A DNA stretch of 64,000 nt from Lytechinus pictus (lineage: Eukaryota). The stretch covers positions 26,786,001 to 26,850,000 of the forward strand of contig NC_087250.1 of NCBI RefSeq assembly GCF_037042905.1, read 5' to 3'. A model generated the notes under the pieces. It saw nothing but the letters and a program-made list of their open reading frames with translations, was not told the DNA's origin and did no database searches. The position numbers were made by a program, and so were the translations under genes. Position 1 is the first letter of the stretch. Every line of letters begins with the position of its first letter. Shown here one piece after another: positions 4,226-53,466 of the stretch.

Positions 4226-4321
4226 TTTTAGTAAGAACCTGTATATACATATATAATATATACATATATATATATGTATATTAGAGGCATAGTGGTAATG
4301 CATTGTACTTATTTCCAACAG

Positions 4322-4372
<51 letters not shown>

Positions 4373-8130: not shown

Positions 8131-8172
8131 AAATAAATATGATGATGTGCTGTTTATCATTATAGTTGAATC

Positions 8173-15000: not shown

Positions 15001-15694
15001 CCTGTATATTATCAAAACAGTAAGCATACCTTGCAATTTTTCCATTCAGATATCCTGTTCCTCATTAGATTGTAACTAACACTTGCTGATCGGCATGGTT
15101 CTCAATTTTGTACTTCTGACTAGGTGTGAACTGCTAAGAACTTGGTCCCACTGGATCTGCAATTGACAATTTAAATTTGAGAGTTTTAGAGATAATAAAA
15201 TTACTCTTCTTAAACAATGTTTTTGAAATTTCTAGCTGCCCATATCCCAGGTCTATGAATGAATATTCCAAACTAGAACAAAAAAGTTATCTGGACCCGA
15301 AACTTCATTCTCTATCACATAGAGGCATAGGCCTACCTCACTCTGTTTATAAAAGTAAAATGATTCCAACCACATATTTCTACAGCTGTAATAGCTGAAT
15401 CTGGTCTATGCTGGGCCTGTATAACTTAAGAATCACGTCACATTTGAATGAAGTAAACACTAAGAACGTTTTCAAATTACCACCCCAGGCCGGACCCAGG
15501 GTATCCTGTTCAAATAGACTTGATTTAGGTCTAGGGTAGGCTACGCCATTTCATTCAAATCTAAGACTAAGACAAGTAACACTTAACATAACAGACATTA
15601 ATGCTAAGTCAATCGTATTTCAACACTGATTATTCTGAAGTAAAGCGTTCCTGAATAAAAGAAACTGCTGAGAATTATACTTATTCATATGAAG

Positions 15695-15776
15695 ATGAAA
15701 TAGAGGGGACGGACTAGGCCTAAACTTCAACTTTCAAGCTTGAAGTTTGGGCCTAGTCCGTCCCCGCTATTTTCAT
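15695..15776. other. Near-perfect ~82-nt inverted repeat (hairpin)
   Basis: Arms ATGAAATAGAGGGGACGGACTAGGCCTAAACTTCAA and TTGAAGTTTGGGCCTAGTCCGTCCCCGCTATTTTCAT around a short loop. Confidence 0.85.
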
Positions 15777-16634
15777 ACCCCATGACTACATCGACAATCT
15801 CGCTCGGCTAGCACCGGCGATATCAAAGGCCGGATCCCGCTCTGACCATATCCCTACATTGACCTAAATTTGAATAGGCCTAAAATCGACAGTTTGTCGT
15901 TACTAAAAAACAGGAGGTCGGAAACAAGTCCACATCTACCCCTGATAATTGTCTAATCACAATAAAACTGAAATAAAGGTTTACTTTGGACCTACATGAA
16001 GCATTCCGATGAATGTCTAGATCTACGACAAACTATATAGACCCCTAGTCCTAGAAACTCAATGATCGATCACACTTATTTGGAAGTCAGGCAAAAGAAA
16101 TATTGAAATTGAGGTTTACATAGTGCGTAATACAGGATGAGCCCCGAACCCCGGCAAACACATTACAATTTGCAAGTGAGATCAAAACATGAAAATGAGC
16201 GTAACTTACTTTTATTCCTATGGAATGTCATTAGAATAGTATTGATGTTCCCTCCAAGATTTTCCGCTCCAATGAAGTTCACTCAGAAACCATGATTTCG
16301 AACATCAATTCTATAAACAGATAATTAGTCTAGCTATTTCGTTTCAGAAACTTCAAATTCGCAGAGTCCAAAAGAACGACACTTCGCACAGATATCGTAG
16401 GGAATTGTGGGACGGAAAAAAATGTTTAATGCATGAGTACATGAATAAAACATTAGCGTTTAATCCAATCATACAAGTGCATTATGCGTATTTTGACGTC
16501 ATTCTCATGAATAAAACATTGACCCTCCAAAATCATCCTTCAAATTGTCCGCCGGCAGCCATGTTGGCTATGTACAAAACCTATGGGAAATAAAAACGCG
16601 CGGAAAGAGTTCCCTCTCTAGCTCCCTTCGGGAG

Positions 16635-19544
16635 CACGTACGTGCAGTCGCCGCTGGCTAACGTCAGCTTAATGGACGACGCCATATTGCCAGATTCAGG
16701 CAGATTTGGCCCGCGCCCTCTCCGGCTAACGCTCGGCTAAAGCTCGAACGCCATTCACCCATACACTAATTCCCCTTGATTACCGTTGTTAAAAACCTCT
16801 GTCATATCTTTTCCAGCATTTTTATGAATTAGCGATTGATGTTTTTCCGTTTATCAGATATCCTTCATTATACACATATTTTTTTCATATTTATAACATT
16901 TTTATTTTAATCACAATTTTAGTCCAAACGCGGGTCAGTTTTTGTTAACCCACGTTGTTTGTGCATGCCCACGTATAGCCTTACGCGTATTGAAAGGAAT
17001 GATGTTGGGTCGAAAAACAGAATTGTTATTGTTTGTTCCTTGTTTGTTGGGGATGAAACTATGATGGCGACCAGTCACGTTTGACTGTACCGCCAAATAG
17101 TTAAGATTAATTAATTAAGGTCAAGGTGAGATAAGAGAAATGAGCAAGGGGCATTGTGGTGGGGGAGGGGGAGGGGGAGAGGGAGAGAGGGGGGGGGGGG
17201 TTACGAGGGCCGAGTGGGGATACAGTTTCATCATGCAGTACAGGGCGTCGATGAACACTTTTATTTTTTTCTCCAAAATATGGAAAGTGACAGAATAATC
17301 AGAAAAAGGTTGATTGGTTCTGATTTTGAAAAAAAAAACAGAATTTATCAAGATTGCTGTTATTCTTCATGGTTGTAGAATTTAATTTAGTTTCTCTGAT
17401 AAGTATAATTCTTTCAAACAACTCAAATTTTGATTAATCGTATTTCATTTATTTCACTCTTTTCTTTCGCCTCGTTTTTTTTTCTTCCAAAAAACCAGGG
17501 AGCTGAAAAATATGAGAGCTAGAACCTAAAGATATGGGGTAGCTATGACGTTGGAGGGGGCGCAGCCTCATGCACTTGCAGATCCAAATCAATTTTCACA
17601 GGGGAGACACTTAGAGTAGCCCCTATTTCTTTAATATTATTTTTACAAGCAAAAAGAAGTCAATGAAGACATCAGGCCACCGACAGCTGCCTCGTCAAAG
17701 GGGGGGGGGGGGGCGGTCGATTATTTTGAGTATTTTTTTTTCATTTTGTCCTCAATAAGGGGGGGGGGGGGTTCAATTAATTCTATATACACTTCTATTG
17801 TCTTTATATATGGGGGGGTCTGCTACTGAGCATGTTTTTAAAAGGGCTTAATAAGGGGCTTAATACAACAGAAATTGTACGATTTAATACAATAAAATGT
17901 ATCATCGAGGTTAATACTAAATTAATACACAATTAATAATTGTTTTAATTGAAAATGAAAATAATAAAGGCACCCATATAGATCTTAACATCTCATAAAT
18001 ACAGGCCTATAAACCTGTATTGGAAGTTGAACAGGCATAAAGTATAAATGTTTAGCTATATAGCTGATGCTTTGATCCCGCAACCAAATAATGTTATCAT
18101 AAACTAGTAGATGTTATATCAGTCATGTCAGTGGCGTAACAAGTGAAAATAATTGAGGGTACTACGATATGGCGTATCAGGCAAAATTTATAATATATAG
18201 TTGCAAGCAAGCGACATAAGCATAATTTTGACTTTTGGTTACAAAAATCCAATTGAACAATTTCGCAAGATTCTCTTACCTTTTCCTTTTTTTTCTTGTT
18301 CGTGAATTGGGGGCATGCAAGACCCCACCCCCCCCCCATACAGCACCACTCTTTGTTGTCACTGTCTAAAATGTGATTTAAACTTTGAGAATTTGAATTT
18401 CTTATCTAAGTAATCCAAAGGGATAAGACAAAAATATTTGCAGATTACTTATTTCAAAGTATTTTTATACCTAGTATAACTCCCCAACTCTGCTCTAGCT
18501 GCACTGCACGTTGCCTAACGGCCTTCCACCAAAGGGCCAGGCCGACTCGCCCCGTGAGCAAGTGACCGCGTTCGCGTAAGTTCACCCGAAGCCAGGACTA
18601 AATTCTGACCATAAACATCACCTAACTAATCACTCTCTGACAATATTTCAAAGTATCTTTTATTACAGTCGATCCTTTGGGCCATTAAACGATAATATTT
18701 CCAATGTTATCATGACAAACAATTTTAATGAGATAGTGGCATTGTAGAAAAAACAAATTTATAAGCACGAAATGGCACCAGATAAATCATCAAACATACA
18801 GCGCAGCGTTCGGGACTGGTGAGTGGTACGGCTCTCTTGGAGTTTTCGCCCCGACGAATTCGGCGAAAACGCTACCATTGCGCCGTGCGAATGTTCAATC
18901 TGCGGCTCTCAATCAGAGACTTGAATGTCTCTTTTTGCATTATCGAAAATGTATCATAGACTTTGTTTGATTTGTTTACAAGTAAGTTGCATATCCGTCG
19001 TGATAATTAGGAAAATCCATGATGTCTTCTTCTAATTCTGTAAAAATTACCTCTTCAATGTGCCTGTGTCAGAAAATTGCCGGAAATCGTAAAAACTTGC
19101 CTAAAATGTCTCTTTTTGAAAGTTCATCCATGGTCTGGAAAAAAATGTTATAATTTATGTAGACGTATACCGTAAACAAATACATCCTCGATCACTGAAA
19201 TGAAGTGTTTGCTAAGCTTTTATATCTCAGACCGCGTTACCATGGCAACTTGGGAAAACCTTTATTTTTTACTAATAAAATTCTGGTTTTAAGGGTCATT
19301 TTAGAGACATAAAACTAACCATATTTTGAAGTATTGGGTTTAAATTTCACATAAAACTGAATTATCTATGTTTATACTTTCGTATATGAATATTCATATT
19401 TCTTGTAGAATCTTAGTTTTTGATTGGTCAATGTTTCAGTCATGGGTAATAACTGAGCGTTAAAAAATCTGAAAATGCGCATTTTATCGGCAACCAACAA
19501 GCAAGATGGCGGAACACATTAAGTTGGCGCTATGCACGTACGTG
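16635..19544. mobile_element. Non-autonomous Chapaev-like DNA transposon (CAC...GTG, 4-bp TSD)
   Basis: TIR CACGTACGTGCA / TGCACGTACGTG; GGAG at 16631-16634 and 19545-19548; removing it restores a palindrome and an open reading frame. Confidence 0.7.
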
Positions 19545-22500
19545 GGAGCTTATACGTAAGATCGTATCTCTGTGATTTTCCAAGGCCCTATATAAACAAG
19601 GTTGCGACACCGGAAGTTGCCGTCATTTGCTCATGGAGCTTTTGAATAGTTCCAAACTCACCGAAGTCAATGGGGGAGATTTTTCGACAGCAAATTTCAG
19701 GTAATTACAATTGTTATTAAGAAAAACAAAATGATCGTTTTTAACGAGAATTTTATGTGCTTCATTTCTATGTGATCGATTTGCAATAATTTTGAATTTT
19801 AACATGCTTTTTTACTAATTTTTAATAGTTCCAAGGCATAAACATGACAGTAAAGATACGGTATGGGACTGGCAACCGTGGCCGGCAGTGGGGCTGGCTC
19901 AGTAGGCCGATATACGCTGTGACTGGTTGTGTTTCCTGACGGGTTGGGCGTCCGGACTCATGAGTTTTTCCTTTCGATTTTGAAAAGTTTACAAGCAATG
20001 TCTTTGATTTTTTTAGCACAGAATGTAAGAAAATATTATAAAGAACAAATAATGATGGTGATAAGCATTATTCAAGCTATATTTTTTGCTTTATTTTCCT
20101 GAGAAGTGAGATAAAAATAAAAAAACAAGTGAGATAAAAATAAAAAAACAAGTGAGATAAAAAAAAAAAAAAAAAAAAAAAACAGCAAGCCTAGAGTACT
20201 TCTACATAGGATGGGGGTCGGGTGTCCGGACACTTTATATTTTTGAAGCCTTCTTTTTTGTCTTTATATGAATTTAATAGTTGTAATCATCTTCTATTTT
20301 GTTCTTTGTAATATATTCCTTAACATTTTGTACTAAAAATTGATGAAACTTCGCTTGTAAATTTTTCCAGACGACTTTCTAAAGTAAAATTGATCGCCCG
20401 GACACACAACAACTGGGTATACAAGGCTTCATTTTTCAGTGTCCAGACACCCAACCCCTCATCGATGTTTCCACAGATCCAAAACAAATTTCCTGAAAAT
20501 GAACCCCAAATTTTCTAAAATTCATAGACAATTCCTGGAATTTTCAATTTTGATTTTCAACGAAAATCTGGCAATAATAAATAATAATTAATACAGTGAG
20601 CTTAAATTTGGTCCAAGAAGTGACCAAAATCAAGAAATTTAACAGTTTTTGTTCATCATGTCCTCTTGAAAAATAGGAACAAAATTAGGAAATAACGAGC
20701 GCAGAAAATTATAAGTTTCGATGATGGAGCCTAATTGGAGCCTACGTCTGGATCCGGAGGAAGATCTAATGTTAGATCTAAATCTTTATAAAATATTACA
20801 TGAATATTTTAAAGTTGCTACGGTTAATTGTTGTTTAATTGTAATCATGGGCGGATCCAGTATTTTCCAAAACGGGAGGCACATTTTTCTGAGGAAAGAT
20901 TTAACAACGCTAAAAGAAAAGGGTCTTCACTTTCAAGGGGGGGGGGCAGGGGCACACTTCTACATTTCTACATTACAATTTTTAGTTTTGCTTCTCAAGG
21001 GGTCTTGGGGGGCACAAGCTGGCTTTGCCACCCCTCCCTCTTGCAATTTTTGGATTTCCTGAATTTCCTGGAATTTTTTTCATTTCTGGAACCTTTCCTG
21101 GAAAAAGTTTTTAAAATTCTCAAATTTATGGAAGAGTGGAAGCACCCCATCCACTTGCACTCTTCAACCACCCTGTCTGTCTTGAGTCAATGCAACATAC
21201 ATGTACAATGCACACTCAAAAAGTCTTTAAAATATCACTTTTTTTTTACATTAAAAAAACTCAGATCCATTCAGTTATTTGTTTTCATTCTAAACTTAGA
21301 AAAAAAAAATTTATTCACCAGAGCGCTCAAAAATTTTAATTTTGAGCATATTTTTGTGAGGCCTTCTGAGATTGATGCAGATCTTCATCTCCACAGACTC
21401 TCTTTTTAATCCCTTTTTTATTAGAAAAAATAATAATTTCAAGAATTCAATTTAGTTTTGTGCCAAGGCATTTTTTTATGATGATGAATTCACTGTATAG
21501 TCAAAATTGACTGTTCCAAAATATCAAGTATTCATCCAGTCTAGATCAAGAGAAAATCAACAATCTTGTTTACAATCTTGTTCACCGCATAGGTTACTAA
21601 CTGCGGACAAGGACAGGTTATCACAACCTTGTGATAAAAGTGGTGTTAGCTTAGGACTGCATTTTTTTAAAGTGGTGTTAGACCACATGGATGTTATCAC
21701 AACCTTATAATATTGGATAAGTGCCCCCATCATACCACTAGTTGCATGTCCGGACAGGTTGGGTATCTAGACCGAAAATTTCTTCCACTAGGCCAAGTAA
21801 TTTGAAATGGTTTGGAATTAAAATCAATTCTTTGTAGTTTTTCAAAGAAACTTTTAGAATTTGGAGGCCTAATGTAGCATACATGTACATGTAGACCTCT
21901 ACTCTGTTGATATGTAGTATGGATTGGTGTGATAAGTAATTACAAAAGCCAATGACAATACATGCTTAGTTGACTAGATAATCACTGATGCACGATCATG
22001 CACCAAACTTATCTAAGTTAGATCTAAATGTAGATTTTTTTTTCAATTTGATTGTGGACAATAAAATAGGCCCTAATTGCTGCCGATTGATCTGTTTTGG
22101 ATGAGAGGAACTACTGGATAAGCCTGTAAGCTGTGAAAGTATGATTGTTTGATTTCCATCATTATAGTAATAAGATGTGATTATATTACATACATGTAGG
22201 GCTACATTGTGCAATCAATCTTTCTTATTTCCTTTAAATCTTCTCCTTTAAATCTTGCATCATGTATCAGTCCGCCTGTCTTCTGACTGCATTTTGTGCA
22301 ATGTTGGATGAGTTCGACTCTCATGAAGTTCAAAATTTAAATTCAGAACTTTCATTGGTGGCAACAGCATAAAATGAGGGTCAATCTCTCACTCTCTACC
22401 TCTTCTTTCTTTTATTTTATATTTAGTGTACATGTAATGATAATATAGTTGGATCATGCATTAATTTAGATAGTTGTAAAGAGGTTGTTTTATTAAGCAA

Positions 22501-24592
22501 ATACATTTTAATGCCAATATGAACTTTATATGGCATTGGATGGGTGAGGATGTGCCATGGCCGCATTAGTCTGCAGGCACAGACCGAATGAAACTTGTTC
22601 TAAGTGTGGCTCCAAGGAAGATACATGGTGACCATGAAACCTACTACACTGTCTCAGATGTTGTTCTGCTACACTATTCTTCTTCGCCATGGAAAATTCC
22701 AGAAGTTACAACATCTGAGATGGTACAGAGATTGAAGCTTTTTGGTCTAGAAAATGTGCAAAATATTGGCAGTGCAGAAATGAAAAAAAAAAAAAAAAGG
22801 AAGCTACATGCAAACCAACTGGATTACTAAACTCATTTGTCCATGTACTGACACCATGAAAGCATTTAGGGTTATCATAGACCTAGTGGTCAATGATGTT
22901 CGAATATGCCTTGTGAGAATTGAACTCACCCAGTACACAACAAAGAGTTTATAGCCAAATTGGTACTAAGCTAGACAGGAATAACCATCGTTTCTGGGGA
23001 TTTATTTAACAATTTCTGACATTTTACTAATAAGTGAGAGAAGCCAACGCAGTTCAGCGAAACAACCAAATACAGAGACTGATGCTTTTGGTCTAGTACT
23101 GTACTAGGCCTACCTGGGTATTTCACTTGCCTTCGGAATAGTTTTACATCACAGTGGCAACTATAAGGATAGCCCTGGCCTGTATCATATATGAAAATAA
23201 AATAAGGCATGTTAATCTCGAGAGCACCGAGGTACAAGTGTGTAAGGCATGATTATAATGTAAGTGGTATAAAATCCAAAGAACACCATGGTATGTTTTT
23301 ACAGGGCATAAAGGGTAGAATTATTAAGAACGCTATAAAAAATTATGTAGCGATAGGAATATAAGGGGATACTAGCTCTGGGCTTTTGTAATTCTGGTGA
23401 CAACTGACAAGACCACTTATCCAAAGTAAAAGGTTATGACATAAACCTAACCTTATCCTCAGTTAGTAACCCCTGTGCTGTGTGGTGATTGAAATGAATA
23501 AGTATTTATTTACTTTTTTTTTGTATGTTCTTTTGATCTAAACTGGATAAATGCTTCATTATTTGGCACAGTCCTGGTTGTAAATTCATCTTATGCCTTT
23601 GCTCCAAAATAAATTGAATTCTTGAAATTAATTTTGTTCTAATTAAAAATAAAGTTTGTGAATGTGAATATCTCACTTATCTCACTTTCCACCAAATAAT
23701 AGGCAATATATGTTTCATCTTCAAAATCTAAATTCACAAAATTGATTCTAATTCAATTGTCAAAGTTGATTATCAAATGAACGTAATTCCCAAGGATACC
23801 AATTACCTTTCTTATAACATCTTTGCATACATTTTTTGCCTGTATTTTGTCATGTTTATTTATAACTCACTGCATGTAGATCTAGATCTATTTGGTATTA
23901 TAGGTCTATCTGATCTTATTCTTAGTTAGACTTGCCTATTTAGATCTAGTAGTAATATTTTTTGCTGCTCTTTTTTGTTAATAGGGTCACATGGAAGACC
24001 ACCAAGTTAATGATATGTGCCACCCTGTGACCTGTTTAAATATCAGAAATTTAAAAAAATCAATTCTCACAGTCACAGTCCACTCACACTATTGCGAGGT
24101 TAGTATATGCTATACGGTCACAGACTCACAGTCAAACTGAAACTCGATCAGTCAAAGACAAAAGCACAAAGTAAAAAATATGCTCAAATCAATCATGTTT
24201 TTGAGCTCTCTTGTAAAAAAAAATCAAAATCAGCTAAATTTACAACGGCACAAAATCTACAATAAGAATTTAGGATATGAAACTAGTATTTATGTCACCA
24301 CATACATCTCAGTCTCACCTCTCGCTCTCCAAACGACCCGTGGGGGACCAGCAGAACCTTACATCCAGCCCGACAGTTCCGGGGAAAATTAGTGCAGCGT
24401 CCCACTCGCTACCAGCAGCAGTGAGCATTTACGGCTTGCGACGAACTCGGCTGCCATTTTTCAACTCAACGATATTTCACGTATTTTGTTATAATCTCGT
24501 ACAAATTTGATAAATTTAGGTGGTCGCTAATATATTGGTATGAATGTGCAGCGTAAAAATAAATTTCTAACGTCTATTTCCGATATAATTAT

Positions 24593-25489
24593 AAACAAGT
24601 GGAATGCCTCTGGCCGTCTCACCTGCATCACGCGATTCAATATAGCAGCAGTGCTGATTTTGAAAACTACTATAACTCGCACAAGATGTTCAGTGATACT
24701 TGGTTACTCTTATTTCCACGTTTTATGAACTAGACCAATACACTTATAGAGATATGATGGCAATTCAACAAATACCCCCAACGTGGCCAAAGTTCTTTGA
24801 CCTTACATGACCTTTGACCTTGATCATGTGACCTGAAACTCGCACAGGATGTTCAGTGATACTTGATTACTATTATGTCCAAGATTTATGAACTAGACCA
24901 ACACACTTTCAAATTTATGGCTGTAATTCAACAAATACCCCCAATTTGGCCAAAGTTCATTGACCCTAAATGACCTTTGACCTTGATCATGTGACCTGAA
25001 ACTTGCACAGGATGTTCAGTAATACTTGATTACTATTATGTCCAAGTTTCATGAATCAGATCCATAAACTTTCAAAGTTATGATGGTAATTCAACAGATA
25101 CCCCCAATTCGGCCAAAGTTCATTGACCCTAAATGACCTTTGACCTTGGTCATGTGTCGTGAAACTCATGCAGGATGTTCAGTGATACTTGATTAACCTT
25201 ATGTATAAGTTTCATGAACTAGGTCCATATATTTTCTAAGTTATGATGACATTTCAAAAACTTAACCTTAGGTTAAGATTTTGATGTTGATTCCCCCAAC
25301 ATGGTCTAAGTTCATTGACCCTAAATGACCTTTGACCTTGGTCATGTGACATGAAACTCAGGCAGGATGTTCAGTAATACTTGATTAACCTTATGGCCAA
25401 GTTTCATGAACTAGGTCCATATACTTTCTAAGTTATGCTGTCATTTCAAAAACTTAACCTCAGGTTAAGATTTGGTGTTGACGCCGCCG

Positions 25490-25526
<37 letters not shown>

Positions 25527-25582
25527 CGCCGTCGGAAAAGCGGCGCCTATAGTCTCACTCTGCTATGCAGGTGAGACAAAAA
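24593..25582 (-). mobile_element. HINE/pearl-like element, second copy (inverted)
   Basis: Reverse complement of 7172-8130 with few substitutions and a longer (GCC)n tract. Confidence 0.8.
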
Positions 25583-25697
25583 TGATTCAAAACTTTGCAC
25601 GCATTTCCAATGGTAGCAGTCGACAAAAAGGCCCGGTTGGAACTATTCGAGACCCTTCAAATTTGACCTTTGACCCCTGTTGTCGCAACCTTGTTTA

Positions 25698-26241
25698 TGT
25701 TGTAAAAATGAGAGTTGTGGTGTTAGCGATGGTGTGATGGCACGAGATACGATACAATACGATGGCGAGTGGTTAAACTTACAATTACAACACTGACAAT
25801 GGTTACGACTCACGAATACACGAATGGGTTACTGACGGTACGAAACAGTGACAACAACTAATACTTACCTGACTCTTGTACTGACGATGCCACACGGTAG
25901 ATACAGATAACAGGTTTCTTATAAGACTTCTAATAACAGACCACGGCGCCGGGTGGGGATGCAGCTGGGTTGATGCGTCCACACTCGTTGGCGTCTCGGG
26001 GTCTTCTCTCTGTGGTGTCTAGTCTGGATCTAATCTCTCAGCACCAGCTTGTGTACGTGCTGTGCAACGCACACACGTAGCAGGCGTAGGAGCATATAAA
26101 GGCTCCTCCAATCAGGAGCGCTCCTCGCATACACACAGCACATACACAGACTTAATATACATGAACATAGATCAATACATATATACTAATACACAGACTA
26201 ATACATATATGGTACTACAGGTACATGGCAAATTTACTACA
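25698..26241 (-). repeat. 3' LTR
   Basis: Preceded on the minus strand by the polypurine tract; 26016-26241 is identical to 33111-33336. Confidence 0.92.
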
Positions 26242-27250
26242 TTCCTCCCGGTTCCATCAGATTGCGACATATATTGACAAATCTATGAATTGACTATATT
26301 GTGCAATCTCAATAGAAAAATACAGATATGAAGAACTGACAGAGGAATGTAATATATGCCTATATGATTAAAACTGATTAAATACATGACATCAATAAAA
26401 TACCTCAAATACATAAAAAGCATGATCTGAGGACATAAACTTGTTTCTATAATAACTTGTTCATTTAAAAAGGTTGCTGGTCCAGCAAAATCAAATATCT
26501 TATCGCTTGAGACCAGCAAATATACACTTTGAGAAACAAGAACAAGTTAATGGTAAGTAATCCGGCCAGTCTGGCCCAGTTTTGTCTATGTATTGATAGT
26601 TGAAACAAAGAATATATTCTTATTTAGTGCAAGTCTAAAAGACTGAAAGAAGGTGTGTTCATCCTTCAAAGTGCACTTCTTTACATATAGATTGTTCAGG
26701 TTGACTCTTGGTCAGTGCTGCATATCAAGTTGTATATTGTACTATTAATAAGCATAATAATGAAATAAAGCCAATTTGGCTGGAGCTCTGTTACCAATAT
26801 ATAGGCCTGTACAATGTGACCTTTACAAATATGATATATGATTGGTAATATGTTTGAGCTCTTAAAAGCATGTAAAGTAATGATACTTCAACCAGATCTG
26901 GTGCAAATAAATATAACAACCTGGACTTGACATACATACATAGTATTTTCTCTTGAGAAAAACTACTACTATTTCAACATCCTGTATGACAATATTTCCA
27001 GGGTTGTTTATATTAGCCTTTGCAAACAAGGTAAAGGATCTATGGTTGAAATATCTATATCTTTTATGAAGTATAAAATATATACAAATATGATAAAAGA
27101 ATTATCTATTGCATAACCAGTGTTTGCACCAATTACTTCATATGTCACCTGAAGAGGTAAAAACTATTGAAAAATAAGAAGTGTGCCTTCACCTTCAGTG
27201 ACTATTAAAAGGAAATACAATGTATAACATAAATTTCAATTGCAGGACTT

Positions 27251-28795
27251 TCAGCAACTGATCAAGGAGATACTACTCCATTCTTGGGGTGGTGGCCAGG
27301 GAGGAAGGAGCCAAGGACAAGATGTAAGAAATGGGTTGTTACCTAAACTACAAACATACCTCTGGTTCCACCACAAGAAAGAACTGAGGAATTCAAGGAT
27401 AGAGAACTTAGGAGGGGTAATTCCCAAAAGTAATTGCACAAGATAACTTTGCCCATACTTGGCATCCTCAGTAGAGGCTCGACTGTCCTCTGACACAGTT
27501 ACAAGACTTGCATTATCTACACCTATATTATTTACAGTATCATCACTTACACATGTAGTATGTACAGTTACATCATCTACACATGTGGTATTTACAGTTA
27601 CTTCATCTACACTTAAGATATCTACATGTGTTATTGCTAAACGTTCTGGACAGTTCCTCTTAAAATGTCCAGATTTGTTGCATGCAAAACAAACATCACG
27701 ACAAGACACCTTGGATTCAGTGTCTTCTGTCGAAGGAGAACGTGTAGGCTCATTCAGCTCTTGAACAGCCGTGACCAATGCCTGGACTGTAGACTGTAAG
27801 GACTTCATCTGTGTCTCTAGAGATTGAAGGTTGTCGACCTTCTTCTCAATACTTGACAAACGGTCCTCCAGCCTGTCCAGACGAGAGGGCAGCTGAGCAT
27901 TAGAAGCGCGCCCGGAAACACCCATACGGTTGATTCTGGGATCCTCCTCAACAGTATCGTACGGCATTTGTCTTGCATACTTCTGCTTACACTGAAACAA
28001 CTGAACTCTGTAAATGGCTTCCTCAAGAGTCTGCGGATGTGAATTAAGAGCATATTGTCCCGCTTCATGGTCTAAGGAACCCTGGCAAAATTTATAAATG
28101 ATTTTCTTCCCAACAATCTCCTCAGGCTGTCCTTCAAATGCACGTGCGGCAAGAGATAAGACACAACGTGCCCAATCTATTTCAGATTCAGTTGTAGCCT
28201 GTTTTGACGAATTGAATATCAATTCGTCTTTAGGAGTCTCCTGGGAAACAAATCTTTGTTCAAACTTCTTGATCAAATTTGTATAGGTAATGCTTTGTTC
28301 GCGACCAAGAACTAATGCCAGAAATTCACTTGCACTTCCCTCTAAACAGTAGCAAAACTGATTGCGCTCTTGGGCTTGATCCCAACCATTTGTCTCAGAA
28401 TACAGTTGGAATTTACATAAGAAAGACTGCCAACTCCCTCTGCCATCGAAGGTCAAGAACTTGGGCAACGAGGAAACCCCCGCACCAGAAGTACTCCCAC
28501 GAGAATAAGAACTGTGGGCACCACAACCTCGATTGAAGGGGGGAGGCTTTGCACAATCATAACGGCATTTATTGGCACATTTAAGTACAAGATCTGCTAG
28601 ATGGAAATCGGATATACCATATGCCTGTGAATAATCAAACGTAGTACCAAACTCAACTACAAAATTGTCAGGATAATCTAGCTTGTATAGATTCCTTGCC
28701 AGTAAACCCTCAGTTAAGTATCTGTTTCTCGTACGAAGGTGTAAAATGTCTTCAACTAATCTTTGTTTTGCTCTAGCGATATCACTTTGCATCAT
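27251..28795 (-). CDS. gag: Retrotransposon Gag (capsid-like domain, coiled coil, CCHC zinc knuckle); first ATG at 28795
   Basis: Intact ORF with FDGRGSWQSFLCKF...NGW...LEGSASEF capsid-like motif, LDRLEDRLSSIEKKVDNL coiled coil and CFACNKSGHFKRNC knuckle. Confidence 0.9.
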   Translation of the reverse strand: MMQSDIARAKQRLVEDILHLRTRNRYLTEGLLARNLYKLDYPDNFVVEFGTTFDYSQAYGISDFHLADLVLKCANKCRYDCAKPPPFNRGCGAHSSYSRGSTSGAGVSSLPKFLTFDGRGSWQSFLCKFQLYSETNGWDQAQERNQFCYCLEGSASEFLALVLGREQSITYTNLIKKFEQRFVSQETPKDELIFNSSKQATTESEIDWARCVLSLAARAFEGQPEEIVGKKIIYKFCQGSLDHEAGQYALNSHPQTLEEAIYRVQLFQCKQKYARQMPYDTVEEDPRINRMGVSGRASNAQLPSRLDRLEDRLSSIEKKVDNLQSLETQMKSLQSTVQALVTAVQELNEPTRSPSTEDTESKVSCRDVCFACNKSGHFKRNCPERLAITHVDILSVDEVTVNTTCVDDVTVHTTCVSDDTVNNIGVDNASLVTVSEDSRASTEDAKYGQSYLVQLLLGITPPKFSILEFLSSFLWWNQRYVCSLGNNPFLTSCPWLLPPWPPPQEWSSISLISC

Positions 28796-31700
28796 TATGC
28801 ATTCCAAATAAATTCAGAAAAGTATTATTGATGATCACCCTGGTGATTCAAAGGCATACTCTTAAACATATTTATTAACTGTCATAAATCCAAATTCAAC
28901 GATCTACAGTGTATTAAACTTAACAGAATAAAACTTGCAGATCAGTGAAAGAACTTAACTACCGGTAGGTTTGATATACTTCTTTAATCCTGTGTCACTG
29001 AATACACTTACTGCCAAGGAAAGAGTGAAGTATTGCAATACTTGTACTGCTACGAACAAGCGTCTCAATAATAATAATAGATGTACACACTCCACTCCTG
29101 TAGCAATGGATATATTCAGTGAAAGTATATTTACAAATTACAGTGCAGCTTCAAGTTTCAGAGACTACACTTGTAGAATAGAATGTATCAAACTTGTACT
29201 ACTCTGAGTAATCGCAGAAGTGTCAATAAGTTTTACTTACTCTACGACTATTAAAAGAACCTAACAAGGATTCAACTTATCGAAGCCTCAACGATTTACA
29301 GGAGTAGCATTCAATAATAATTGTTTATTTCTGATGAATGCAATATATAAATGCAATATATAAATGTTTATTTCTGATGAATGCAATATATAAATGTCAA
29401 ACACACATTTATCCCACATCCAATTTTCTTTCTTTTTTTTCTTTTTTTTTAGAATGGGGATAAGTTACCAACTAAAAAATGATGAGACTACTATTTAGAA
29501 ATCAACTTGCGCAAAATGACAGCAGTGAATTTTGTACTTCACTGATGAATGGGATTCTAGAGCCTGAATAGAAATTTGCAAATTTTCAGCGCAAGAATGA
29601 TTCTCCAAAAATACAACAGAGCAAACTATTTGAACAAATTGATTTTTTTTTTGTATTTTTTTTTTCCAAAGAATGTTGATATCAAACATTTATTCTGATA
29701 TCAAAGATTGATAGTATCTGTACTTTCACTTAAAATCAGAGTAAAGAGTTGGTTTAATTAAAATAAGTATCTTCAAGAGCCTTATTAAAATTTAATTCAG
29801 TACTTCTTGTACCTTCAGTGAGATCTATCTTTCCTTAAAATCTAGAAATTAAATTTACAAGCAAGAATTATTCCAAAGAAAAATTCCTGATCTAACAATG
29901 CTTGTTAAAATTAATCAACTAAGAAAAACTGACTTTCAAACAGACACAAAGACAATCCAGGATAACCTCCAAGAAAAATTTCCTAGAAAGAACTAAGGGC
30001 CTGAAATTAAATTCCAAGTCCTCGTTCAAACAAGTTAACACCGAGTCAAAAGGCAAAGCAAAACAATTGCACTTGTTGGCTCCAGGTATACACTGTCGGG
30101 AAATTACAAACACCTGAGAGATTAAACAAGATTATCGGCTGCAAAGATTCCTAAAATCCTAAGTAATAATGGGATTTGATATCAAATTAAGACAATAGGA
30201 TTTTCTAACCTGGACTAAATTAAGTATTTTAGCGTTAGGGTTAGAAATTGAACTTCCAAGATTTTTAGTAATCTGGACAAGTGCTTATTTACTGATCCAC
30301 TAATCTAAGTAAATTAAAGATCCAAAAAGACTAACGTTAATTTTAACCTCTGTATTGTTAACGTTAAATCTGAAGGTAAGCTCAGAAGATTAATTAAATA
30401 AATTCTTTTGAGTTTCCAGTGAGACAGTCGAACTGACTGTATCTCATCAAAGATACAAAACTGCAAAGTGCTACTGCACAAACGGTCACAGGTAGTCTAG
30501 TAATATAAACTCGATGTACCGGTACGGTACCGTACCCGGTACACCAGACAAAGCTAAGCCTAACTAAGCTTGGGCCCTCGGGGAAATAAATTTAACTAGA
30601 TCTACGAAAAAGAAATATGACAATATTGAAACAAGGAATTTATCTCTGTTTGCATAAATATTGAGTCAGAAGCGATTGACAGCTAAATCCATCAAATTGT
30701 CAGTAAAAATCGACGAAATGAAAACTCGTTCAGAATTTGCCTTCACGGAGACGATAGCCGGCTCGTGAACGTTTTCCCTGCCTGGAGCTACGGGCCAGAT
30801 AGAGAGGTGCGTTGCGCTGGGGTTGGTTTGGAAACTGCGCGACGTTAGACCTAAAATTAACTAATAAAGAATGATCAAATTACAAAAACAACTTCTACGA
30901 GTTCCTGCTTGGAACTAATCTTTAGAATAAATCAACAGTCAATCGCGATAATCGTATAAAGTCAGAGTTTAGCAAATTCTAACTCTGATCGACTGTGGTG
31001 TTTACTTCAACGAGAGTCGATCTCGATCAAGTGAAAAATATAAGTCACGTGATTCGGCTCGGCAGTCTTTCGCCAAGCGAGCTAGGCGATCGAGGGTAGA
31101 TTGTACTAGTCAAAAACAATCTTGTTACTTTTTGACTTGCAATTAAATGGTAATCAAAATAAGCACATAGATTTATCAATGTGTTGATTCAATTTTAGTT
31201 CGAATCAAAACGACATATAAACATGTAACATGAAGAACATAGAGAACAATTTATCTAAGTTATCAAGAAATTAATAGCCTACCGGTTTCTCTGCAAAACT
31301 ACACAATTTCAAAAAATTATGGAGCCTACACCCAACCAGCCCAAACTACCAATTATTTGATGTGGAAGATGAAATTATTCAGACTTCTCTTTCCCAGTCC
31401 CAACGGGTCTGACACTGGTATTGACAGAAGTCTATTCACATAAATATTTCAGACGTCTATTTTTTCCAGTCCCAACGGGTCTGACACTGGAATTATTTAT
31501 AGAAGTCTATATATTCACACACAATTCTACCGAATGGGTGAACAATTAGCAACAATGAATAACAATAACTTTTAGATTGAATTTAAGACAATGACAATCA
31601 CAGTTATTACAAGAAACAATCACAATATGAGATGTGATGAATGAAATGCTTTAAGAAAATTCACAAGATGTGTATTAATTAAAACAATAATCAAGAGTAT

Positions 31701-32768
31701 ATTTTTCAAGTTACAGGTAAGATCCGAAGCTCAGAAAAACCCACCTATTTTTCTAGTAACAGGTAAGATCTGAAGTTCAGAAAAACCAACCTATAACCAA
31801 CGACACAAGTGTAATTTCGAGTTGGGTAAATGTTTGAAGTAAATTCAGATTACTAAACTCGGCAGCCAGGAGTATTAGAACTTCTAACACTCTTTCTGCC
31901 ACCCAATGTGTACAGAACTGGTTGTAAAAACACTTGCTGAATGTCGATAAAAAACATACACTGAAAATAGAAATGTATGAACAGCAACTCTACGCCCTCA
32001 AAAGATTAGTACACTGCCCAATACAAGAGTATGAAATTCTAGGAAACTTACACCATCTGGAATAATTACTGAGGATCGATAGAGGACTCAAATTTCAAGT
32101 TCAAACTTTTTCAATCCAATAAAACCACCAAATACTCACACCCGACTTTTTTTGAAGTGGTGTGGTGTGAACGTTCCGAATTCGGAAGAAATCTTAAAGA
32201 CAATGGCGGACTAAAAATATCCAAGCCTAGATGCAGATTTCAAAGAATTCACAAACAAAAGCAACGAGACGGTATAATAAAGTTACGCAAAAATATGCAA
32301 GGAACGAAATTCTTGATCGCGAGCCAAACAATAGAAGAGACTCGCGAAGAATGCGATAAGAAATGCAAGTGCAACTAAACAATGTAGGGCGTATGCACCG
32401 TGTGCATAGAGTCGACCACGTGCGTTGCAATGAAAATGCAACGCAGTGGACATGAAATAACTTCCCAGATATGGCAAATATGTATCAAAATTGACTTGTA
32501 TCAAACAAGAAATTATATCATGTACGGAAAAATGGTAAAACTAAAACAAGATGTGTGCGAGATGCATGCGAATCCACGCAATTACGGCACGCAAAATGAC
32601 AATTCTCGGTAGAGAGCGGAAAACTTTCCACTCACTCTCCGTTCGTTATACACTTCAAAATCACTCACAAATGACTTTCATGAGCAAGTATGAAGTATGA
32701 ACGGACATGAAATGATGAAAATGAAAATGACAGGCGCACAGGACGATCCGAAAACTCGCAATCGCCAA

Positions 32769-33336
32769 TGTTGTAAAAACTGTATAGGTTGATGGTGAGG
32801 GTGACTGATGTGATGGCACGAGATACGATAAGTTACGATGGCGAGTGGTTAATTATGACAAGTACAACACTGACAAGGGTTACGACTCACTAATACACAA
32901 ATGGGTTACTTCGACGGTACGGGACAGTGACAACAACTTATACTCACCTGACACTTGTACAGGCGATGCCACACGGTAGAAACAGGAACATTTATACTAA
33001 TCACAGGTTCGGTAGATACTTCTAACTTAGTTGTAGACCATGGCGCCAAGTGGGGAACAGCTGGGATGCGTGTCCACACTCGATGGCGTCTCGGGGTCTT
33101 CTCTCAGTGTTGTCTAGTCTGGATCTAATCTCTCAGCACCAGCTTGTGTACGTGCTGTGCAACGCACACACGTAGCAGGCGTAGGAGCATATAAAGGCTC
33201 CTCCAATCAGGAGCGCTCCTCGCATACACACAGCACATACACAGACTTAATATACATGAACATAGATCAATACATATATACTAATACACAGACTAATACA
33301 TATATGGTACTACAGGTACATGGCAAATTTACTACA
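32769..33336 (-). repeat. 5' LTR
   Basis: Followed on the minus strand by T-TGGCG... (PBS-like); TG/CA termini. Confidence 0.92.
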
Positions 33337-33352
33337 TTTATATAGGGCCTTG

Positions 33353-34308
33353 GGATTTTCTGAACACGCTTCAAGTCTCATCGCCCTCTCTTGGCGAGAT
33401 AGAACCAACCAATTCGAATCGGCATGGAAGCAGTGGCTTCGCTGGTGTGGTGAACAATCGATTGATCCCTTTAAATCATGCTTAGTTAATGTAATTAACT
33501 TTCTTAGTTCTGAACAAAGTCAGGGAAAATCGTATTCTACTATTAACTCATATCGCTCAGCGCTCTCTTCTGTTCTTCCTCCAATTGAAGGTTATGCTAT
33601 TGGCAAACATCCCATGGTAGTTAGGTTATTAAAGGGAATATTCAATGCTAATCCTCCTAAACCAAGGTATCAAAATACCTGGGAAGTGTCCCGAGTGTTG
33701 GATTATTTATGTTCATTGGCAGAGAATAGCCAACTTTCTTTATTTCAATTAAGTAAAAAACTTGTGTCGTTAGTGGCGCTTGTAACAGCGCAACGTATAC
33801 AGACACTCAACCATCTGGATATTTCTTTCTTGCACATTTCTGATGATCGTGCAGTTTTTCAAGTCATGGAAATCTTGAAAACCACAACTCCAAAACGGAG
33901 TATTGCAAATCAACTAGTTGAACTTCCTTCCTTTCCTTTGAATAAGAAATTGTGTGTTTTATCAACCCTCAATTAGGAATATCTTTATCGTACTAAACCG
34001 CTTCGTGAGTGTCATGGTCAATCAAAGCTCTTTATTTCTACTAAGAAACCTCACAAATCTTTATGTTCCAGTCCTTTGGCAAGATGGCTGAAATCCACTT
34101 TTTGTGCTTCGGGCATTGATACCTCAGTGTTTTCAGCTCATAGTTTCAGAAGTGCAGCTACCTCTTCTGCATACGCACATGGCGTCACATTGAAAGAAAT
34201 AATGAAGAAAGCTGACGGTCAAATGCCCGAACTTTCAAACAATTTTACCACAAACCCATCGTCGTTACAGATTCTTTTGCGTCTTCCGTTTTGGAACAAA
34301 CTTCATAA
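33353..34308 (+). pseudogene. DIRS-type tyrosine recombinase remnant
   Basis: Motifs SWR...KSYSTINSYRSALS...GKHPMVVRLLKG...PKPRY..TW, AQR (catalytic R) and AHSFRSA (HxxR). In-frame TAG at 33974-33976; a frameshift at ~34217 precedes (W)SNARTFKQFYHKPI, which carries the catalytic Y. Confidence 0.9.
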
Positions 34309-36901
34309 ATAAATGGTTTTTACCCCATGACATATCACTTTGACGTAGAGTTAAAGCTGTAATTGAATAGATTTTGTTAGTTTAAGAAGGGCGAAGTCAT
34401 TTAGTCTGTGCGTTTTCCGATCACTCATGATAATTCTACATGGGTGTGAAATGTTGTTTTTCCTTTTTTGTAAGAAAGTGTTAATTTTTCCTCCCGAGTG
34501 TTTTTTCAATCATCGATTCCTATTTATAGGGTCCCTTACCTCATTAGAATTTTAAATTACTTTGAATTTCTTTTGTGTGGTCTCTCTGCCTAGCACCTGG
34601 AAATATGCTAACCCTCTTCGACTTGTACTACATTATTACTAATAGAATTCTTATTATACTTCATGTTATTTGCATAATTTAGGAATTATATGACATATCA
34701 ATATAGATTAGTCACCCATCCACCTATTATATTAGTAGGTCCTACAAGATTAAACTAGAACAATGTCAACTAGAACAATGTTTGGCTGTAGATGGCGCTA
34801 TTTATATTACTGGTAAGGTCGGATTTGACACTTCAATTTGCCATCAGGGGCCCTATTTCATAAAATTTGTTTTAATAACAAATCAAGTTTGCGATAGCAG
34901 TTAAACGCTACTCAAATACTAAAATCTGATTGGCCGATAGCAAATTTGTTATCGAAATTATGCATTTCGCATTATGACAAGTCTATATGAAACAGGATTT
35001 ACAATTTAAATGTTCTACTCTCAAAGGGAAAAATTGACCCTGAAAATAAGTTGTTAATAAAAGCTAAACAACAGAAACAAAAAGCAATAGTTGGGATTAT
35101 TTTTTAGTTTATACACTCATATATTTCATCGATGATATGTTGTCCGATAGAAACTTCCAAAATGGATTTTTCATATTGTCACTGTTATCATTGTCATTTA
35201 CCATTATCGTCTTTCGTGTTATTGCTATTGCTGTTGGTATTATCATAGTAATGTCAGTCACAGTTTTTCATTATTGTTATAAATATAAATCAGCCATATT
35301 ATAAGTTGTTGTGGTATAATTTGTAAAACCAACTCCAGTACTGTCATCGCTCTAGCTTCTAGAAAGCAGATGTAAAGTGCAGCCATTGGAGACGAAAACT
35401 GTTGTTGAAGTTAATATTATTCCAAAGCGGTCCTTTTATATCGGTGTAATATTGATAACGATAATATCTTATTTTTCATACGTATTATATTCCCAGCTGT
35501 TATTGACTTACTGCTTTCCAAAATATGACTAATCTATAGAGACAGAAACATAGAGAGAACTGACAATCCACCTTTGAAGGTGGTTTCATTGTGATATAAT
35601 TACGATTATAAAAAGTCTGCAAAAAAGTTAAAACTGCACACGCAGAAAAGTACGCAACTTCGAACAACTTCAAAACTACAACTGTAAACAACTTTAAAGA
35701 GGTTGTACACTAATGTAACAACATTAATTGTTAAATTCATAAAAAATGAAAGAGATATGTATGTAAAGCGCAACCTCAAAACCTATTTAAACAAAACACC
35801 AAAAACAGATAAGATGGGAAAATCAATTAGTACGTACATTTATCAACGAGATAGAATCGACATCATTTGTAATTATTTTTATTTTATACAGGCTTTTCGT
35901 CGCAAATGCTTTGTCACCAACGTCATAAAGTAATATTAATGCGAGCTTATGAGCTGCAGGAAACATTTCTGCAAAGCTACTCTGTGCGACGCATTATTAC
36001 GTCAACGTATCAATATACCAATGTATTTTCACAAATAATCATAAATGCACAGATGTATTTGATTTTGATTATCGACTCCCATTGTCGTTCACGGTATACA
36101 ACATACGTGTGTTATTTATTATGAAATGGTATAACTGTAGTACACATGGTATATTTGTCTTCCAAGATGCTCCATGAATAATAATAACATAATGCACAAC
36201 TGTACATGTAAGTGCACTCAAATTGTGTCACAACATTTTTTTAAAATCAAACTCTTTAAACTTGAATACTCTAACACTGTTTTGTTGTGGATGGTACCGA
36301 TTAAAAGACATGTTCCAGTGGATGTGATTTTCTATGAAATATTTTGATCACTTTCTTCTTCTTCTTCTTCTTCATCTTGTTGATATAAAATAACTTCATG
36401 GAATTTCTTGAAAATGTCAGAAAATATCCTTTGCTCATTGCTTTTTGATACGGTACCACTAAAGTCATGAAAATAATTGAATTTTGCATTCAAAGAAAAT
36501 TAATAACCGTGATAGTGAAATAAATGTATACAAAAGTAACATGACATTATTTATAAAGAAACAAAGGATTCAAAATAGAACCCTTTTCAAGATTGCCATT
36601 CGCGCCGATATATCAATGTTATTCACAGTTTTTAATTCTTAACTCCGAACAGCTTCAAAAAAAATATATTACACTAACTGCAAAGGAAGCAAGAAAAGAC
36701 AGATACTCATGTTTACTCTAAGCTAGGATATATAAGATTGACAAGAGTTTATTGCCCCAAAATTAGAAGACGGTCCAAAAATACAGAAACATTTACAGAA
36801 AAGGTTCACAAAGAAATCACCTATAAGTGTATTAAACGCGGCTAGTTTTATAATAGCATGGTGTTACTCTAAATGAACTTCAATGTATTCTTTGTATCTT
36901 A

Positions 36902-37758
36902 AGGCCACCGCACACCTTACGACCCGACTGGTCGGCGACTGGCTTGCGACTGAGAGAGGGGATCCGGAGATGAATCGCAATTAAAGGCCACCGCACACCT
37001 TACGACCCGACCAGTCGCCGACTGGCTTGCGACTGGGTGAGGGGAGATGTGACGTCACAGCGCATGTCAGCTTCAGAGTCGCAGACCGGTCAGAGACAAG
37101 TCGCAAGGAAAATCGGAAGGATTTGACATGTCGAATCCTTATGACTGGATCGCAAGCTCAATCCAAATTCCAGCCAATCAGACAGCAGAGTTGCACGACG
37201 CGTATATGATAAACAACGCGCATACGCAGTAGTAAACGCATTCTCTTTGTTGTTATGCCAAAAAGCAAAAAGCGCATGCGTGAGTCGCAAATCGGATCGC
37301 AAGGTGTGCGGTGTCGTGGCTTATGACTACCTTGCGATTCATCTCCCCTCTCTCAGTCGCAAGCCAGTCGCCGACCAGTCGGGTCGTAAGGTGTGCGGTG
37401 GCCTTAAGGCAGTCATAAGCCTCGACACCGCACACCTTGCGATCCGATCTGCGACTCACGCATGCGCTTTTTGCTTTTTGGCATAGCATGCAACTGAGAA
37501 AGTGCACTTACTACTGCGTATGCGCGTTGTTTATCATAATACGCATCGTGCAACTCTGCTGTGTGATTGGCTGGAAGTTGGATTGAGCTTGCGATCCAGT
37601 CATAAGGATTCGACAGGTCAAATCCTTCCGATTTTCCTTGCGACTTGTCTCTGACCGGTCTGCGACTCGAAGCTGACAAGAGCTGTGACGTCACATCTCC
37701 CCTCACCCAGTCGCAAGCCAGTCGGCGACTGGTCGGGTCGTAAGGTGTGCGGTGGCCT
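36902..37758. mobile_element. PIF/Harbinger-like MITE copy A, interrupted by copy B
   Basis: TIR AGGCCACCGCACACCTTACGACCCGAC; TTA at 36899-36901 and 37759-37761. Confidence 0.85.
36985..37404. mobile_element. Same MITE family, copy B, nested in A in the opposite orientation
   Basis: TAA TSD at 36982-36984 and 37405-37407; body is the reverse complement of copy C. Confidence 0.85.
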
Positions 37759-37850
37759 TTAGGTCCGACGTACATAAATTTTTTTTCACTTAAAATATAT
37801 CTTTAGTTTACATTTTTACACAGGTCGAACAGAAAGGCTAAGTATGGTAA

Positions 37851-52629: not shown

Positions 52630-53466
<837 letters not shown>

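Follow-up and report, generated by a model that had tools for sequence, protein, structure and literature searches.

A dead DIRS recombinase gene split across about 22 kb by nested transposons in Lytechinus pictus

Where does the start of the DIRS tyrosine-recombinase gene lie whose body is found at 33353–34308, and what has separated the two? The window, that is, the whole stretch of DNA analysed, comprises 64,000 nt of Lytechinus pictus (NC_087250.1:26,786,001–26,850,000, + strand). An initial annotation had rebuilt the start by removing two insertions, 16635–19544 and 19581–33352, and joining 16623–16634 and 19549–19572 to the sequence from 33353 onward. We find that this headline join used the wrong pieces while the nest itself holds: the locus is a dead DIRS recombinase gene split across about 22 kb by transposons nested in one another, and the pile-up of insertions is genuine yet ordinary. 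The whole scheme, in which an inactivated DIRS element became a landing pad for serial ordinary insertions, including element X in the duplication of a P-like element and a presumed Chapaev element Y, is in our judgement very probable. The locus provides a worked example of transposon archaeology, with target duplications ordering five to six insertions and no mutation assumed.

The recombinase body (33353–34308, + strand) starts with the right duplication GGATTTTC and is 82% identical to S. purpuratus XP_030830505, its closest protein. Its open reading frame is disrupted by a stop at 33974–33976 and a frame change near 34217, and its PF00589 stretch (E 0.0017) stays under the Pfam cut-off. 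A DIRS-type tyrosine recombinase of this kind is shared by 80 metagenome loci, many with upstream RT/RNase H/MT motifs, although at no more than 54% in the best segment they are too distant for comparison at the DNA level. The tail of pol overlaps the recombinase start in the +1 frame, reaching about 33485. Both the recombinase and the overlap with a pol tail in another frame, the latter as in distant intact loci, resemble the sea-urchin DIRS1-like retrotransposons (PMC2685390, in part). Unlike those elements, this copy is broken and retains only 39 bp left of the P-like insertion site; neither its left end nor gag, RT, RNase H or methyltransferase was found in the window, and no ITR or ICR was identified. 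Inverted terminal repeats plus an ICR would mark a DIRS1-like element and split direct repeats a PAT-like one; a short direct repeat (34327/34690) is all that 34300–34800 holds, and the left end is absent from the window.

A tblastn search with residues 36–49 of the relative P0046 located the true upstream piece at 12533–12571 (+ strand). This is DIRS sequence, contrary to the earlier statement that none is recognisable left of 16621. It reads DHLNECWRSA in the recombinase frame and IISTNVGAQRDF in the pol frame, and it ends, in the correct frame, with GGATTTTC (12564–12571), the left 8-bp duplication of the P-like element; this 8-mer occurs only three times on the + strand of the window. Seven of its ten residues are identical to P0046, compared with two of ten for the pieces joined earlier, and on the right side of the junction P0046 is matched at 16 of 18 residues. 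When all 127,942 ten-codon stretches of the window were scored against five urchin proteins, the piece ranked first with a summed score of 126, the next stretch reaching 88. It outscored the earlier pieces in 12 of 14 relatives, with one tie and one loss; against P0076 and P0006 it brought no improvement. The pol frame was examined in the 18 of the 80 loci whose tail was found by pattern, a selection biased toward the I-S of the new piece: a spacing of 12 from W to F was found in all 18 and is matched by 12533–12571, which outscored the earlier pieces in 15 of them. Read in the +1 frame, 12532–12570 and 33354–33485 agree with the pol tail found in intact relatives.

Homology in both frames stops at 12532/12533, where DIRS is probably cut again by a Chapaev element, Y. 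The last two exons of a Chapaev-type DDE transposase lie at 2–598 (2–142 and 317–598, + strand), with their start and the left end of Y upstream of the window. PF06918 is matched in P0090, the product of this DNA (100%), and in S. purpuratus XP_794084 (96%); the domain is DUF1280, which a part of PMC3985635 equates with the Chapaev transposase. An Atlas search with the Y exon returned only unnamed clusters, plus a RAG1 lead at 0.82. The presumed right end of Y (12098–12532, + strand) ends in AATTACGTG and reads CACGTA from outside, like the Chapaev-type element E1 described below. Between transposase and presumed end lies a large inverted-repeat element with satellite-like arms (2993–12097), whose ends match as inverted repeats at 22 of 25 positions and which carries arrays at 3154–4222 and 11416–11934; no target duplication was recognised for it. 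Y shares the DUF1280 transposase and the GTG right end with Chapaev (PMC3985635, in part) but shows neither left end nor duplication in the window. An autonomous Y would have inserted into DIRS at a point 31 bp upstream of the P-like insertion, carrying the RT/RNase H/methyltransferase half beyond the window. If there were no Y, a deletion would have cut DIRS at 12533, and the transposase would be an unrelated neighbour, as would the GTG end at 12532. This reading, to which we give a minor but real chance, is consistent with two negative results for the window, which yielded no pol match and no inverted counterpart of the end at 12532; a tblastn search of the window with 379 ORFs from the 80 loci found no RT, RNase H or methyltransferase (this search had no positive control). 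Against it, homology breaks in two frames exactly at a CACGTA-type end, and a Chapaev transposase points to that end over a distance of 12 kb, a further insert making up 9.1 kb of it. A probable Y is the reading that we carry forward.

The largest insertion, 19581–33352, is a non-coding DNA transposon with an 8-bp duplication, P-like or hAT-like. Its ends, as placed by the initial annotation, were confirmed: it starts with CAAGG and has 29-bp terminal inverted repeats (TIRs), the left 29 bp matching the right end perfectly once 25681–25693 and 33341–33352 are joined with one copy of TTTA. However, its left flank is not an exact copy of the 8-bp duplication: 19573–19580 reads TGATTTTC, which agrees with GGATTTTC at 33353–33360 in seven of eight bases, and the exact partner lies at 12564–12571. 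In other runs, contigs diverge from the window at 19581 (X1 record 5) and at 33353 (X16 record 24), and another does so at 16635, the left end of E1 (X16 record 18), so that all three positions are real element ends. The contig of X16 record 24 extends 385 bases to the left of 33353 and points to an intact DIRS copy in this genome. A 6-bp duplication with CCAAGG ends was considered and rejected, as a contig exits at 19581, not 19580, and the exact 8-mer is present at 12564. Elements of the P superfamily are characterised by an 8-bp duplication and CA...TG TIRs. Both features are seen here and are shared with non-autonomous P and hAT elements alike, so that ends and duplication length do not separate the two superfamilies; six-frame Pfam searches of 19581–24593 gave no match, including none to THAP or P transposase.

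Without its two identified inserts the P-like element measures about 5.1 kb. One insert is an LTR retroelement (25698–33336, − strand; LTRs 25698–26241 and 32769–33336) located, as already reported, within the P-like right TIR and flanked by the 4-bp duplication TTTA. It has TG...CA ends, its LTRs are identical at 501 of 540 aligned bases, and a gag-like ORF with a zinc knuckle occupies 27251–28813. The other is a very high-copy DINE-1/HINE-like repeat (24594–25582), which lies some 127 bp short of the right end of the P-like element, with subterminal inverted repeats, 163-nt tandem units and a GCC microsatellite; a second copy lies at 7172–8129. The P-like element lacks this repeat, with a joint at 24593–25578, in three of four runs. 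DINE-1/HINE elements, which are non-autonomous Helentrons including Tsp of sea urchin, share with it subterminal inverted repeats, central tandems, a microsatellite, very high copy number and the absence of a clear duplication (PMC4067079, in part). No duplication accompanies the inner inverted repeats 19982–20367, 21310–24221, 21414–23649 and 15698–15772, and we did not accept them as insertions. The high-copy repeat dominated a comparison of contigs with 15400–35300; of its 1,283 joints, the 15 listed include none that spans E1 or the P-like element.

The initial annotation had also suspected a further insertion or a deletion left of its pieces, and an insertion is indeed present: element X, an unclassified non-coding DNA transposon, spans 12572–19574 (CACAG...CTGTG; 4,089 bp without E1) between 6-bp duplications of ATTTTC at 12566–12571 and 19575–19580. 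The occurrence of ATTTTC followed by CACAG at a junction fixed by homology has a chance of about 9e-7. The termini match as inverted repeats over only 5 bp (6 of 7), and a 15-bp subterminal inverted repeat (12620–12634 and 16519–16533) has a length reached by none of 1,973 random pairs. Partners of the 24-bp spacer of the initial annotation, sought in the window, were only 12-mers with two mismatches and a 5-bp partner at 12572. No Pfam family matched the ORFs of X or a six-frame read-through of its left 4.1 kb (0 families). E1 (16635–19544) in turn is an insertion with its own ends, as first described, with perfect 12-bp TIRs (CACGTACGTGCA), CAC...GTG termini and a GGAG duplication at 16631–16634 and 19545–19548. 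It is at best non-autonomous. CAC...GTG with a 4-bp duplication agrees with the 3–4-bp duplications of Chapaev (PMC4079192, in part), but E1 has no transposase match: its ORFs of at least 48 aa gave no Pfam match above the curated cut-off, and tblastn with four DUF1280 proteins found nothing in it. Across the 104 ORFs searched against Pfam, no match above cut-off fell within X, E1 or the P-like element.

These duplications show the order. The P-like transposon entered the recombinase/pol overlap, duplicating GGATTTTC, and X next inserted into the left one of the two copies, duplicating its final six bases and giving GG-ATTTTC [X] ATTTTC [P-like] GGATTTTC. We place X after the P-like element because this order needs no mutation, whereas the reverse needs one. 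E1 landed in X, the LTR element in the P-like right TIR, and the HINE-like repeat in the P-like subterminal region. DIRS as the oldest layer and the LTR element within the P-like TIR agree with the sequence of events first proposed; the Chapaev-type element, however, landed in the tip of X and not in DIRS. Small DNA transposons swollen by internal LTR and DNA elements are likewise found in maize Ds nests (PMC3260210, in part), but the present nest has five or more layers, drawn from several superfamilies, and three of these layers lie no further than 31 bp from a terminus.

The superfamily of X is most likely hAT6-like. The hAT6 group of animal hATs has 6-bp duplications (PMC12730594, in part), and X shares these together with CA...TG ends, short TIRs, unlike ends and a subterminal repeat. 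It differs in being non-coding, in TIRs of just 5–7 bp and in a CAC start as in the CMCT clade, for which duplications of 2–5 bp are reported. The consensus of hAT ends is CA...TG. Other assignments were rejected: a Transib/RAG transposon needs a 5-bp duplication (PMC1131882 and 10.1101/100735, both in part), and the 5-base flanks of X differ (TTTTC versus ATTTT); Chapaev/CMCT fits the CAC/CA ends but not the duplication, 6 bp versus 2–5 bp; and IS3EU, as described for fungi, is expected to have TIRs above 30 bp and TAYGG..CCRTA, whereas X has CACAG..CTGTG (PMC12730594, in part). Cryptons carry terminal direct repeats of 4 or 6 bp, lack a TIR and have a tyrosine recombinase/DUF3504; X has a 6-bp direct repeat but also short inverted ends, and no recombinase match. 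A literature search found no CACAG transposon with 6-bp duplications like X; Repbase Reports, the usual venue, lay outside its scope. As the new, unclassified 6-bp-duplication element of the locus, X merits study at the family level. We see only a small chance that X belongs, as a non-autonomous element, to an undescribed CAC...GTG lineage with 6-bp duplications and that, in addition, several superfamilies target the tips and duplications of earlier insertions in this genome.

The P-like element, X and probably a Chapaev element all landed in the 39 bp of 12533–12571. Of the multi-superfamily hotspot proposed earlier, the landing of several superfamilies within a few dozen bases was borne out, though E1 did not land in DIRS. 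X cut in exactly at the first base of the P-like element, E1 lies 26–30 bp from the right end of X, and the LTR element is set 12–16 bp in from the end of the P-like element. Of nine candidate nested features, three are no more than 31 bp from a terminus (were landing uniform, the binomial probability would be 2e-4 to 1e-3, uncorrected for choice of locus), a count of nine that includes three inner inverted repeats not accepted as insertions. GC content averages 0.36 over the window; it is 0.51 at 12533–12571 and 0.60 on the left of E1, and is unremarkable at other sites (0.17–0.42 for 7 of 11 flanks). A preference for GC-rich targets has been reported for Transib and hAT (PMC1131882, in part). 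The clustering may arise because several transposases favour the GC-richer targets within AT-rich DNA, with survivorship added, in that an insertion in a terminus would pin the host element and the nest persist. A literature search for preferential nested insertion near TIRs found nothing on tip targeting. Should clustering persist across the genome once GC content and survivorship are controlled for, a targeting cue common to transposon ends would be indicated.

The site was also suggested to be a piRNA-cluster-like trap, kept for collecting transposon fragments, next to an intact housekeeping gene. The sole intact-looking host gene found, and the nearest, is an Arf-family small GTPase gene outside the nest (48876–60418, − strand; exon motifs at 60418, 53409, 51531 and 48939; Pfam Arf E 2e-31), which we take to be ARF6-like; measured rightward to its end, the distance is 14.6 kb from the recombinase and 29.3 kb from 19580, and the nest does not adjoin it. 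A trap would be compatible with the serial insertions favoured here, and the repeats are dense, with at least five kinds of element within 22 kb, but the rest of the window, Arf introns included, is also repeat-laden, and coding parts run in both directions (DIRS and Y on the + strand, the LTR element on the − strand). We regard a trap as improbable.

Alternative transposition beside element ends is known in maize. With this precedent, 12572–19574 might be rearrangement DNA, produced by a deletion between repeats or by the P-like end transposing aberrantly, in which case the 6-bp repeat would be left over from the 8-bp duplication; X indeed adjoins the P-like end, has a TIR of only 5 bp and is known here from one copy (the contig comparison covered 15400–35300). 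However, CAC/GTG ends stand exactly at both junctions together with the 15-bp subterminal inverted repeat, and summed contig depth over 15400–16727, the right part of X, exceeds that of the recombinase in all four runs, as for a repeat family. Rearrangement is thus very unlikely, and an inserted X remains the preferred account.

Finally, we give hardly any credence to the join of 16623–16634 and 19549–19572 as recombinase start, with E1 and the P-like element both in DIRS: the pieces do translate in one frame as written, agree with P0046 at 3 of 12 residues (two leucines and a serine) and have a left flank agreeing with the duplication at seven of eight bases, but they are background (8,707 and 21,161 of the 127,942 stretches score equally well), misfit the overlapping pol frame and are far outdone by 12533–12571 with its exact duplication. 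Neither piece is DIRS sequence. The first (16623–16634, + strand) is right subterminal sequence of X and holds the left duplication of E1, and the second, with TG added, is the last 26 bp of X (19549–19574, + strand); the peptide is a chance reading of the non-coding end of X. A frame-preserving join of 12 codons is no proof unless a relative is compared. In that comparison, which the initial annotation had itself proposed, intact relatives proved unrelated to the joined pieces upstream of GFSEH: XP_030830505 reads RLDYLNKGWRSA there, and four Diadema proteins resemble it.

The coordinates that the initial annotation had assigned to the two DNA transposons were accurate, as terminal inverted repeats (TIRs), duplications and contig ends agreed. 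The Chapaev-type element E1 (16635-19544) has perfect 12-bp TIRs and a GGAG duplication, and the P-like element (19581-33352) has a 29-bp TIR, within the right copy of which an LTR element is inserted (25698-33336; TG...CA ends, duplication TTTA). Contigs of other sequencing runs diverge from the window at precisely these element ends, namely 16635 (record 18), 19581 (record 5) and 33353 (record 24), and continue for 374, 334 and 385 unlike letters, respectively; in contig records on the minus strand, positions run opposite in direction to the window (cf. record 27). The translation across 16623-16634, 19549-19572 and 33353 onward, proposed as the start of the DIRS recombinase, also read as had been given. 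A detail that did not fit was the flanks of the P-like element, which are unequal (TGATTTTC on the left, GGATTTTC on the right). Inside this element, nested AT-rich, foldback-like inverted repeats occupy 21310-24221 and 19982-20367 without duplications, and the only ORF of at least 120 aa in the LTR element interior is gag-like. The two LTRs (25698-26241 and 32769-33336) are 99% alike over the last 267 bp (+ strand) and about 87% alike overall with many gaps (501/540), a mosaic that suggests recombination or conversion between two subfamilies.

Comparison with relatives showed that the joined pieces are not the recombinase start. The recombinase clusters with S. purpuratus XP_030830505 (82% over 33341-34216), and the relatives include four Diadema proteins at 57-65%. 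Before the glycine matching 33353, five relatives read RLDYLNKGWRSA, RLDYLSERWRTA, RLDHLGEQWEAE, RLGALRQRWQAT and RVDYLIGRMQSN; intact relatives thus carry unrelated sequence upstream of GFSEH, the observation that the initial annotation had named as speaking against its reconstruction. Right of the junction, 16 of 18 residues are common to the window recombinase and XP_030830505, and the pieces share with it 2 of the last 10. Scored against all 127,942 ten-codon stretches in the six frames of the window, the pieces lay at background level, being equalled or exceeded by 21,161 stretches with XP_030830505 and by 8,707 with five urchin proteins.

DIRS sequence had been thought absent left of 16621, yet tblastn with residues 36-49 of XP_030830505 gave a weak match (E 0.47) at 12531-12572, WDHLNECWRSAGFS. 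This upstream piece (12533-12571, + strand) topped the 127,942 stretches whether scored against XP_030830505 (40, runner-up 23) or against the five urchin proteins (126, runner-up 88), and it surpassed the pieces in 12 of 14 relatives, with one tie and one loss. It terminates at 12564-12571 in GGATTTTC, a word found three times on the + strand, in the right frame. The pol tail of intact loci reads L-x-A-W-x-x-S, followed by F or Y 12 residues past W (18/18 tails), and the pol frame of the upstream piece, IISTNVGAQRDF, is in register with it. In this frame the upstream piece outscored the pieces in 15 of 18 relatives, although the tails were found in 18 of 80 loci and the selecting pattern favours the new piece. 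The overlapping pol frame supports 12533-12571 as DIRS, short of proof. Altogether the DIRS copy comprises 995 bases dispersed across 21,776 bp, and its recombinase is also broken internally by one stop and one frame change. A search of the window, made without a positive control, found no match to RT, RNase H or methyltransferase. Several DIRS recombinase queries weakly matched 62060-62197 (best E 0.009, 24% identity), a match that may be fortuitous or may mark the remains of a very old recombinase.

Between the upstream piece and the P-like element lies an element of 7,003 bp (12572-19574), here called X, with termini CACAG and CTGTG and ATTTTC flanking either side. The joint chance of such a terminus and duplication at a junction fixed by homology is about 9e-7. 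X also has an inverted repeat of 15 bp, a length reached by none of 1,973 random pairs (maximum 12); its copies are 48 bp in from the left end and, with E1 excluded, about 127 bp in from the right. Summed contig depth, which does not equal copy number, was higher over 15400-16727 than over the recombinase in four of four runs (7.6-9.8 vs 1.2 in run X1), as expected of a repeat family. The two pieces are the final bases of X, separated by E1. No coding match to X was found with Pfam. A tentative assignment as hAT6-like, which fits the duplication length, is the reading we favour; a CMCT-like element with a longer duplication is unlikely, and a Crypton-like element, whose 6-bp direct repeat (PMC3212892) X shares, is doubtful, as is, to the same degree, some other kind. 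The 6-bp duplication does not fit Transib/RAG (5 bp) or Chapaev/CMCT (2-5 bp), and the ends do not match those of IS3EU. In the literature outside Repbase Reports and supplements (of which the termini tables of PMC3212892 and PMC12730594 may be informative on X), we found no description of an X-like element or of tip targeting. A small inverted repeat, AGCTCCC/GGGAGCT, in the right end of X (16622-16638 and 19545-19551) spans the E1 insertion point, with the E1 duplication in its right arm.

The arrangement in the window is GG-ATTTTC [X] ATTTTC [P-like] GGATTTTC. This arrangement results with zero mutations if the P-like element came first and X then entered its left duplication; had X preceded the P-like element, one change at 33353 would be needed. 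E1 is later than X. The P-like element, present without the high-copy repeat at 24594-25582 in three of four runs, predates both that repeat and the LTR element. The duplications show each step to be ordinary cut-and-paste or LTR integration. The nest is real, ordinary and deeper than had been reported, while the DIRS N-terminus rebuilt by excising two insertions was refuted and is replaced.

Left of 12533, DIRS homology ends at ...AATTACGTG, which reads CACGTA from outside, like the E1 end, and the window starts with the final two exons of a gene whose product carries DUF1280, the domain of Chapaev transposases (PMC3985635). Chapaev elements end in CAC/GTG and make duplications of 3-4 bp (PMC4079192). 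The DIRS copy was probably cut 31 bp from the P-like site by an autonomous Chapaev element, Y; the left end of Y lies outside the window, which keeps this step at probable. Y would itself carry a 9.1-kb element with terminal inverted repeats (2993-12097). Satellite-like arrays occupy the regions close to either end of this element (units of about 160-180 nt left, 40 nt right), which also contains further repeats, with no duplication recognised. The Chapaev-type transposase exon (2-598) shares 96% protein identity with S. purpuratus XP_794084, against 82% between the DIRS recombinase and its S. purpuratus relative, a contrast that may stem from a recent shared invasion or from horizontal transfer.

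Of the nine candidate nested features, three are at most 31 bp from a terminus (binomial 2e-4 to 1e-3), but the locus was chosen as striking, three of the features count as doubtful, and others sit mid-element. GC content is 0.51 at the DIRS site and 0.60 at the X tip vs 0.36 for the window, and most other flanks are not GC-richer. Transib and hAT are reported to prefer GC-rich targets (PMC1131882). Such a preference could be one cause of tip clustering; survivorship, a host element being pinned by insertion within its TIR, could be a second. TGGCGCT, a CTCF-like word that we treat as a lead only, occurs at 12552-12558, five bases short of the P-like duplication, and is one of seven copies on both strands of the window. 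Diverged repeat copies at 34763-35068, directly right of the DIRS remnant, and 42486-42775 contain GTAGATGGCGCT, a CTCF-like word.

The nearest host gene found is of the Arf family (60418 to ~48876, minus strand), 14.6 kb from the recombinase end. As to the suggested piRNA trap, whole-window repeat density and mixed coding orientation single out no special site and give no reason to invoke one here. The DIRS copy, E1, Y, the P-like element with its 8-bp duplication, the LTR element and the HINE-like repeat (24594-25582) each belong, or probably belong, to a known kind, and nesting within DNA transposons is already described, for example for maize Ds (PMC3260210). Elsewhere, copies of a palindromic family lie jumbled at 36898-38280 in both direct and inverted orientation; they are 65-217 bp long and 91-100% alike, and the family is apparently nested in itself. 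A 550-bp element at 39451-40000 has 47-bp inverted ends that start in a run of G.
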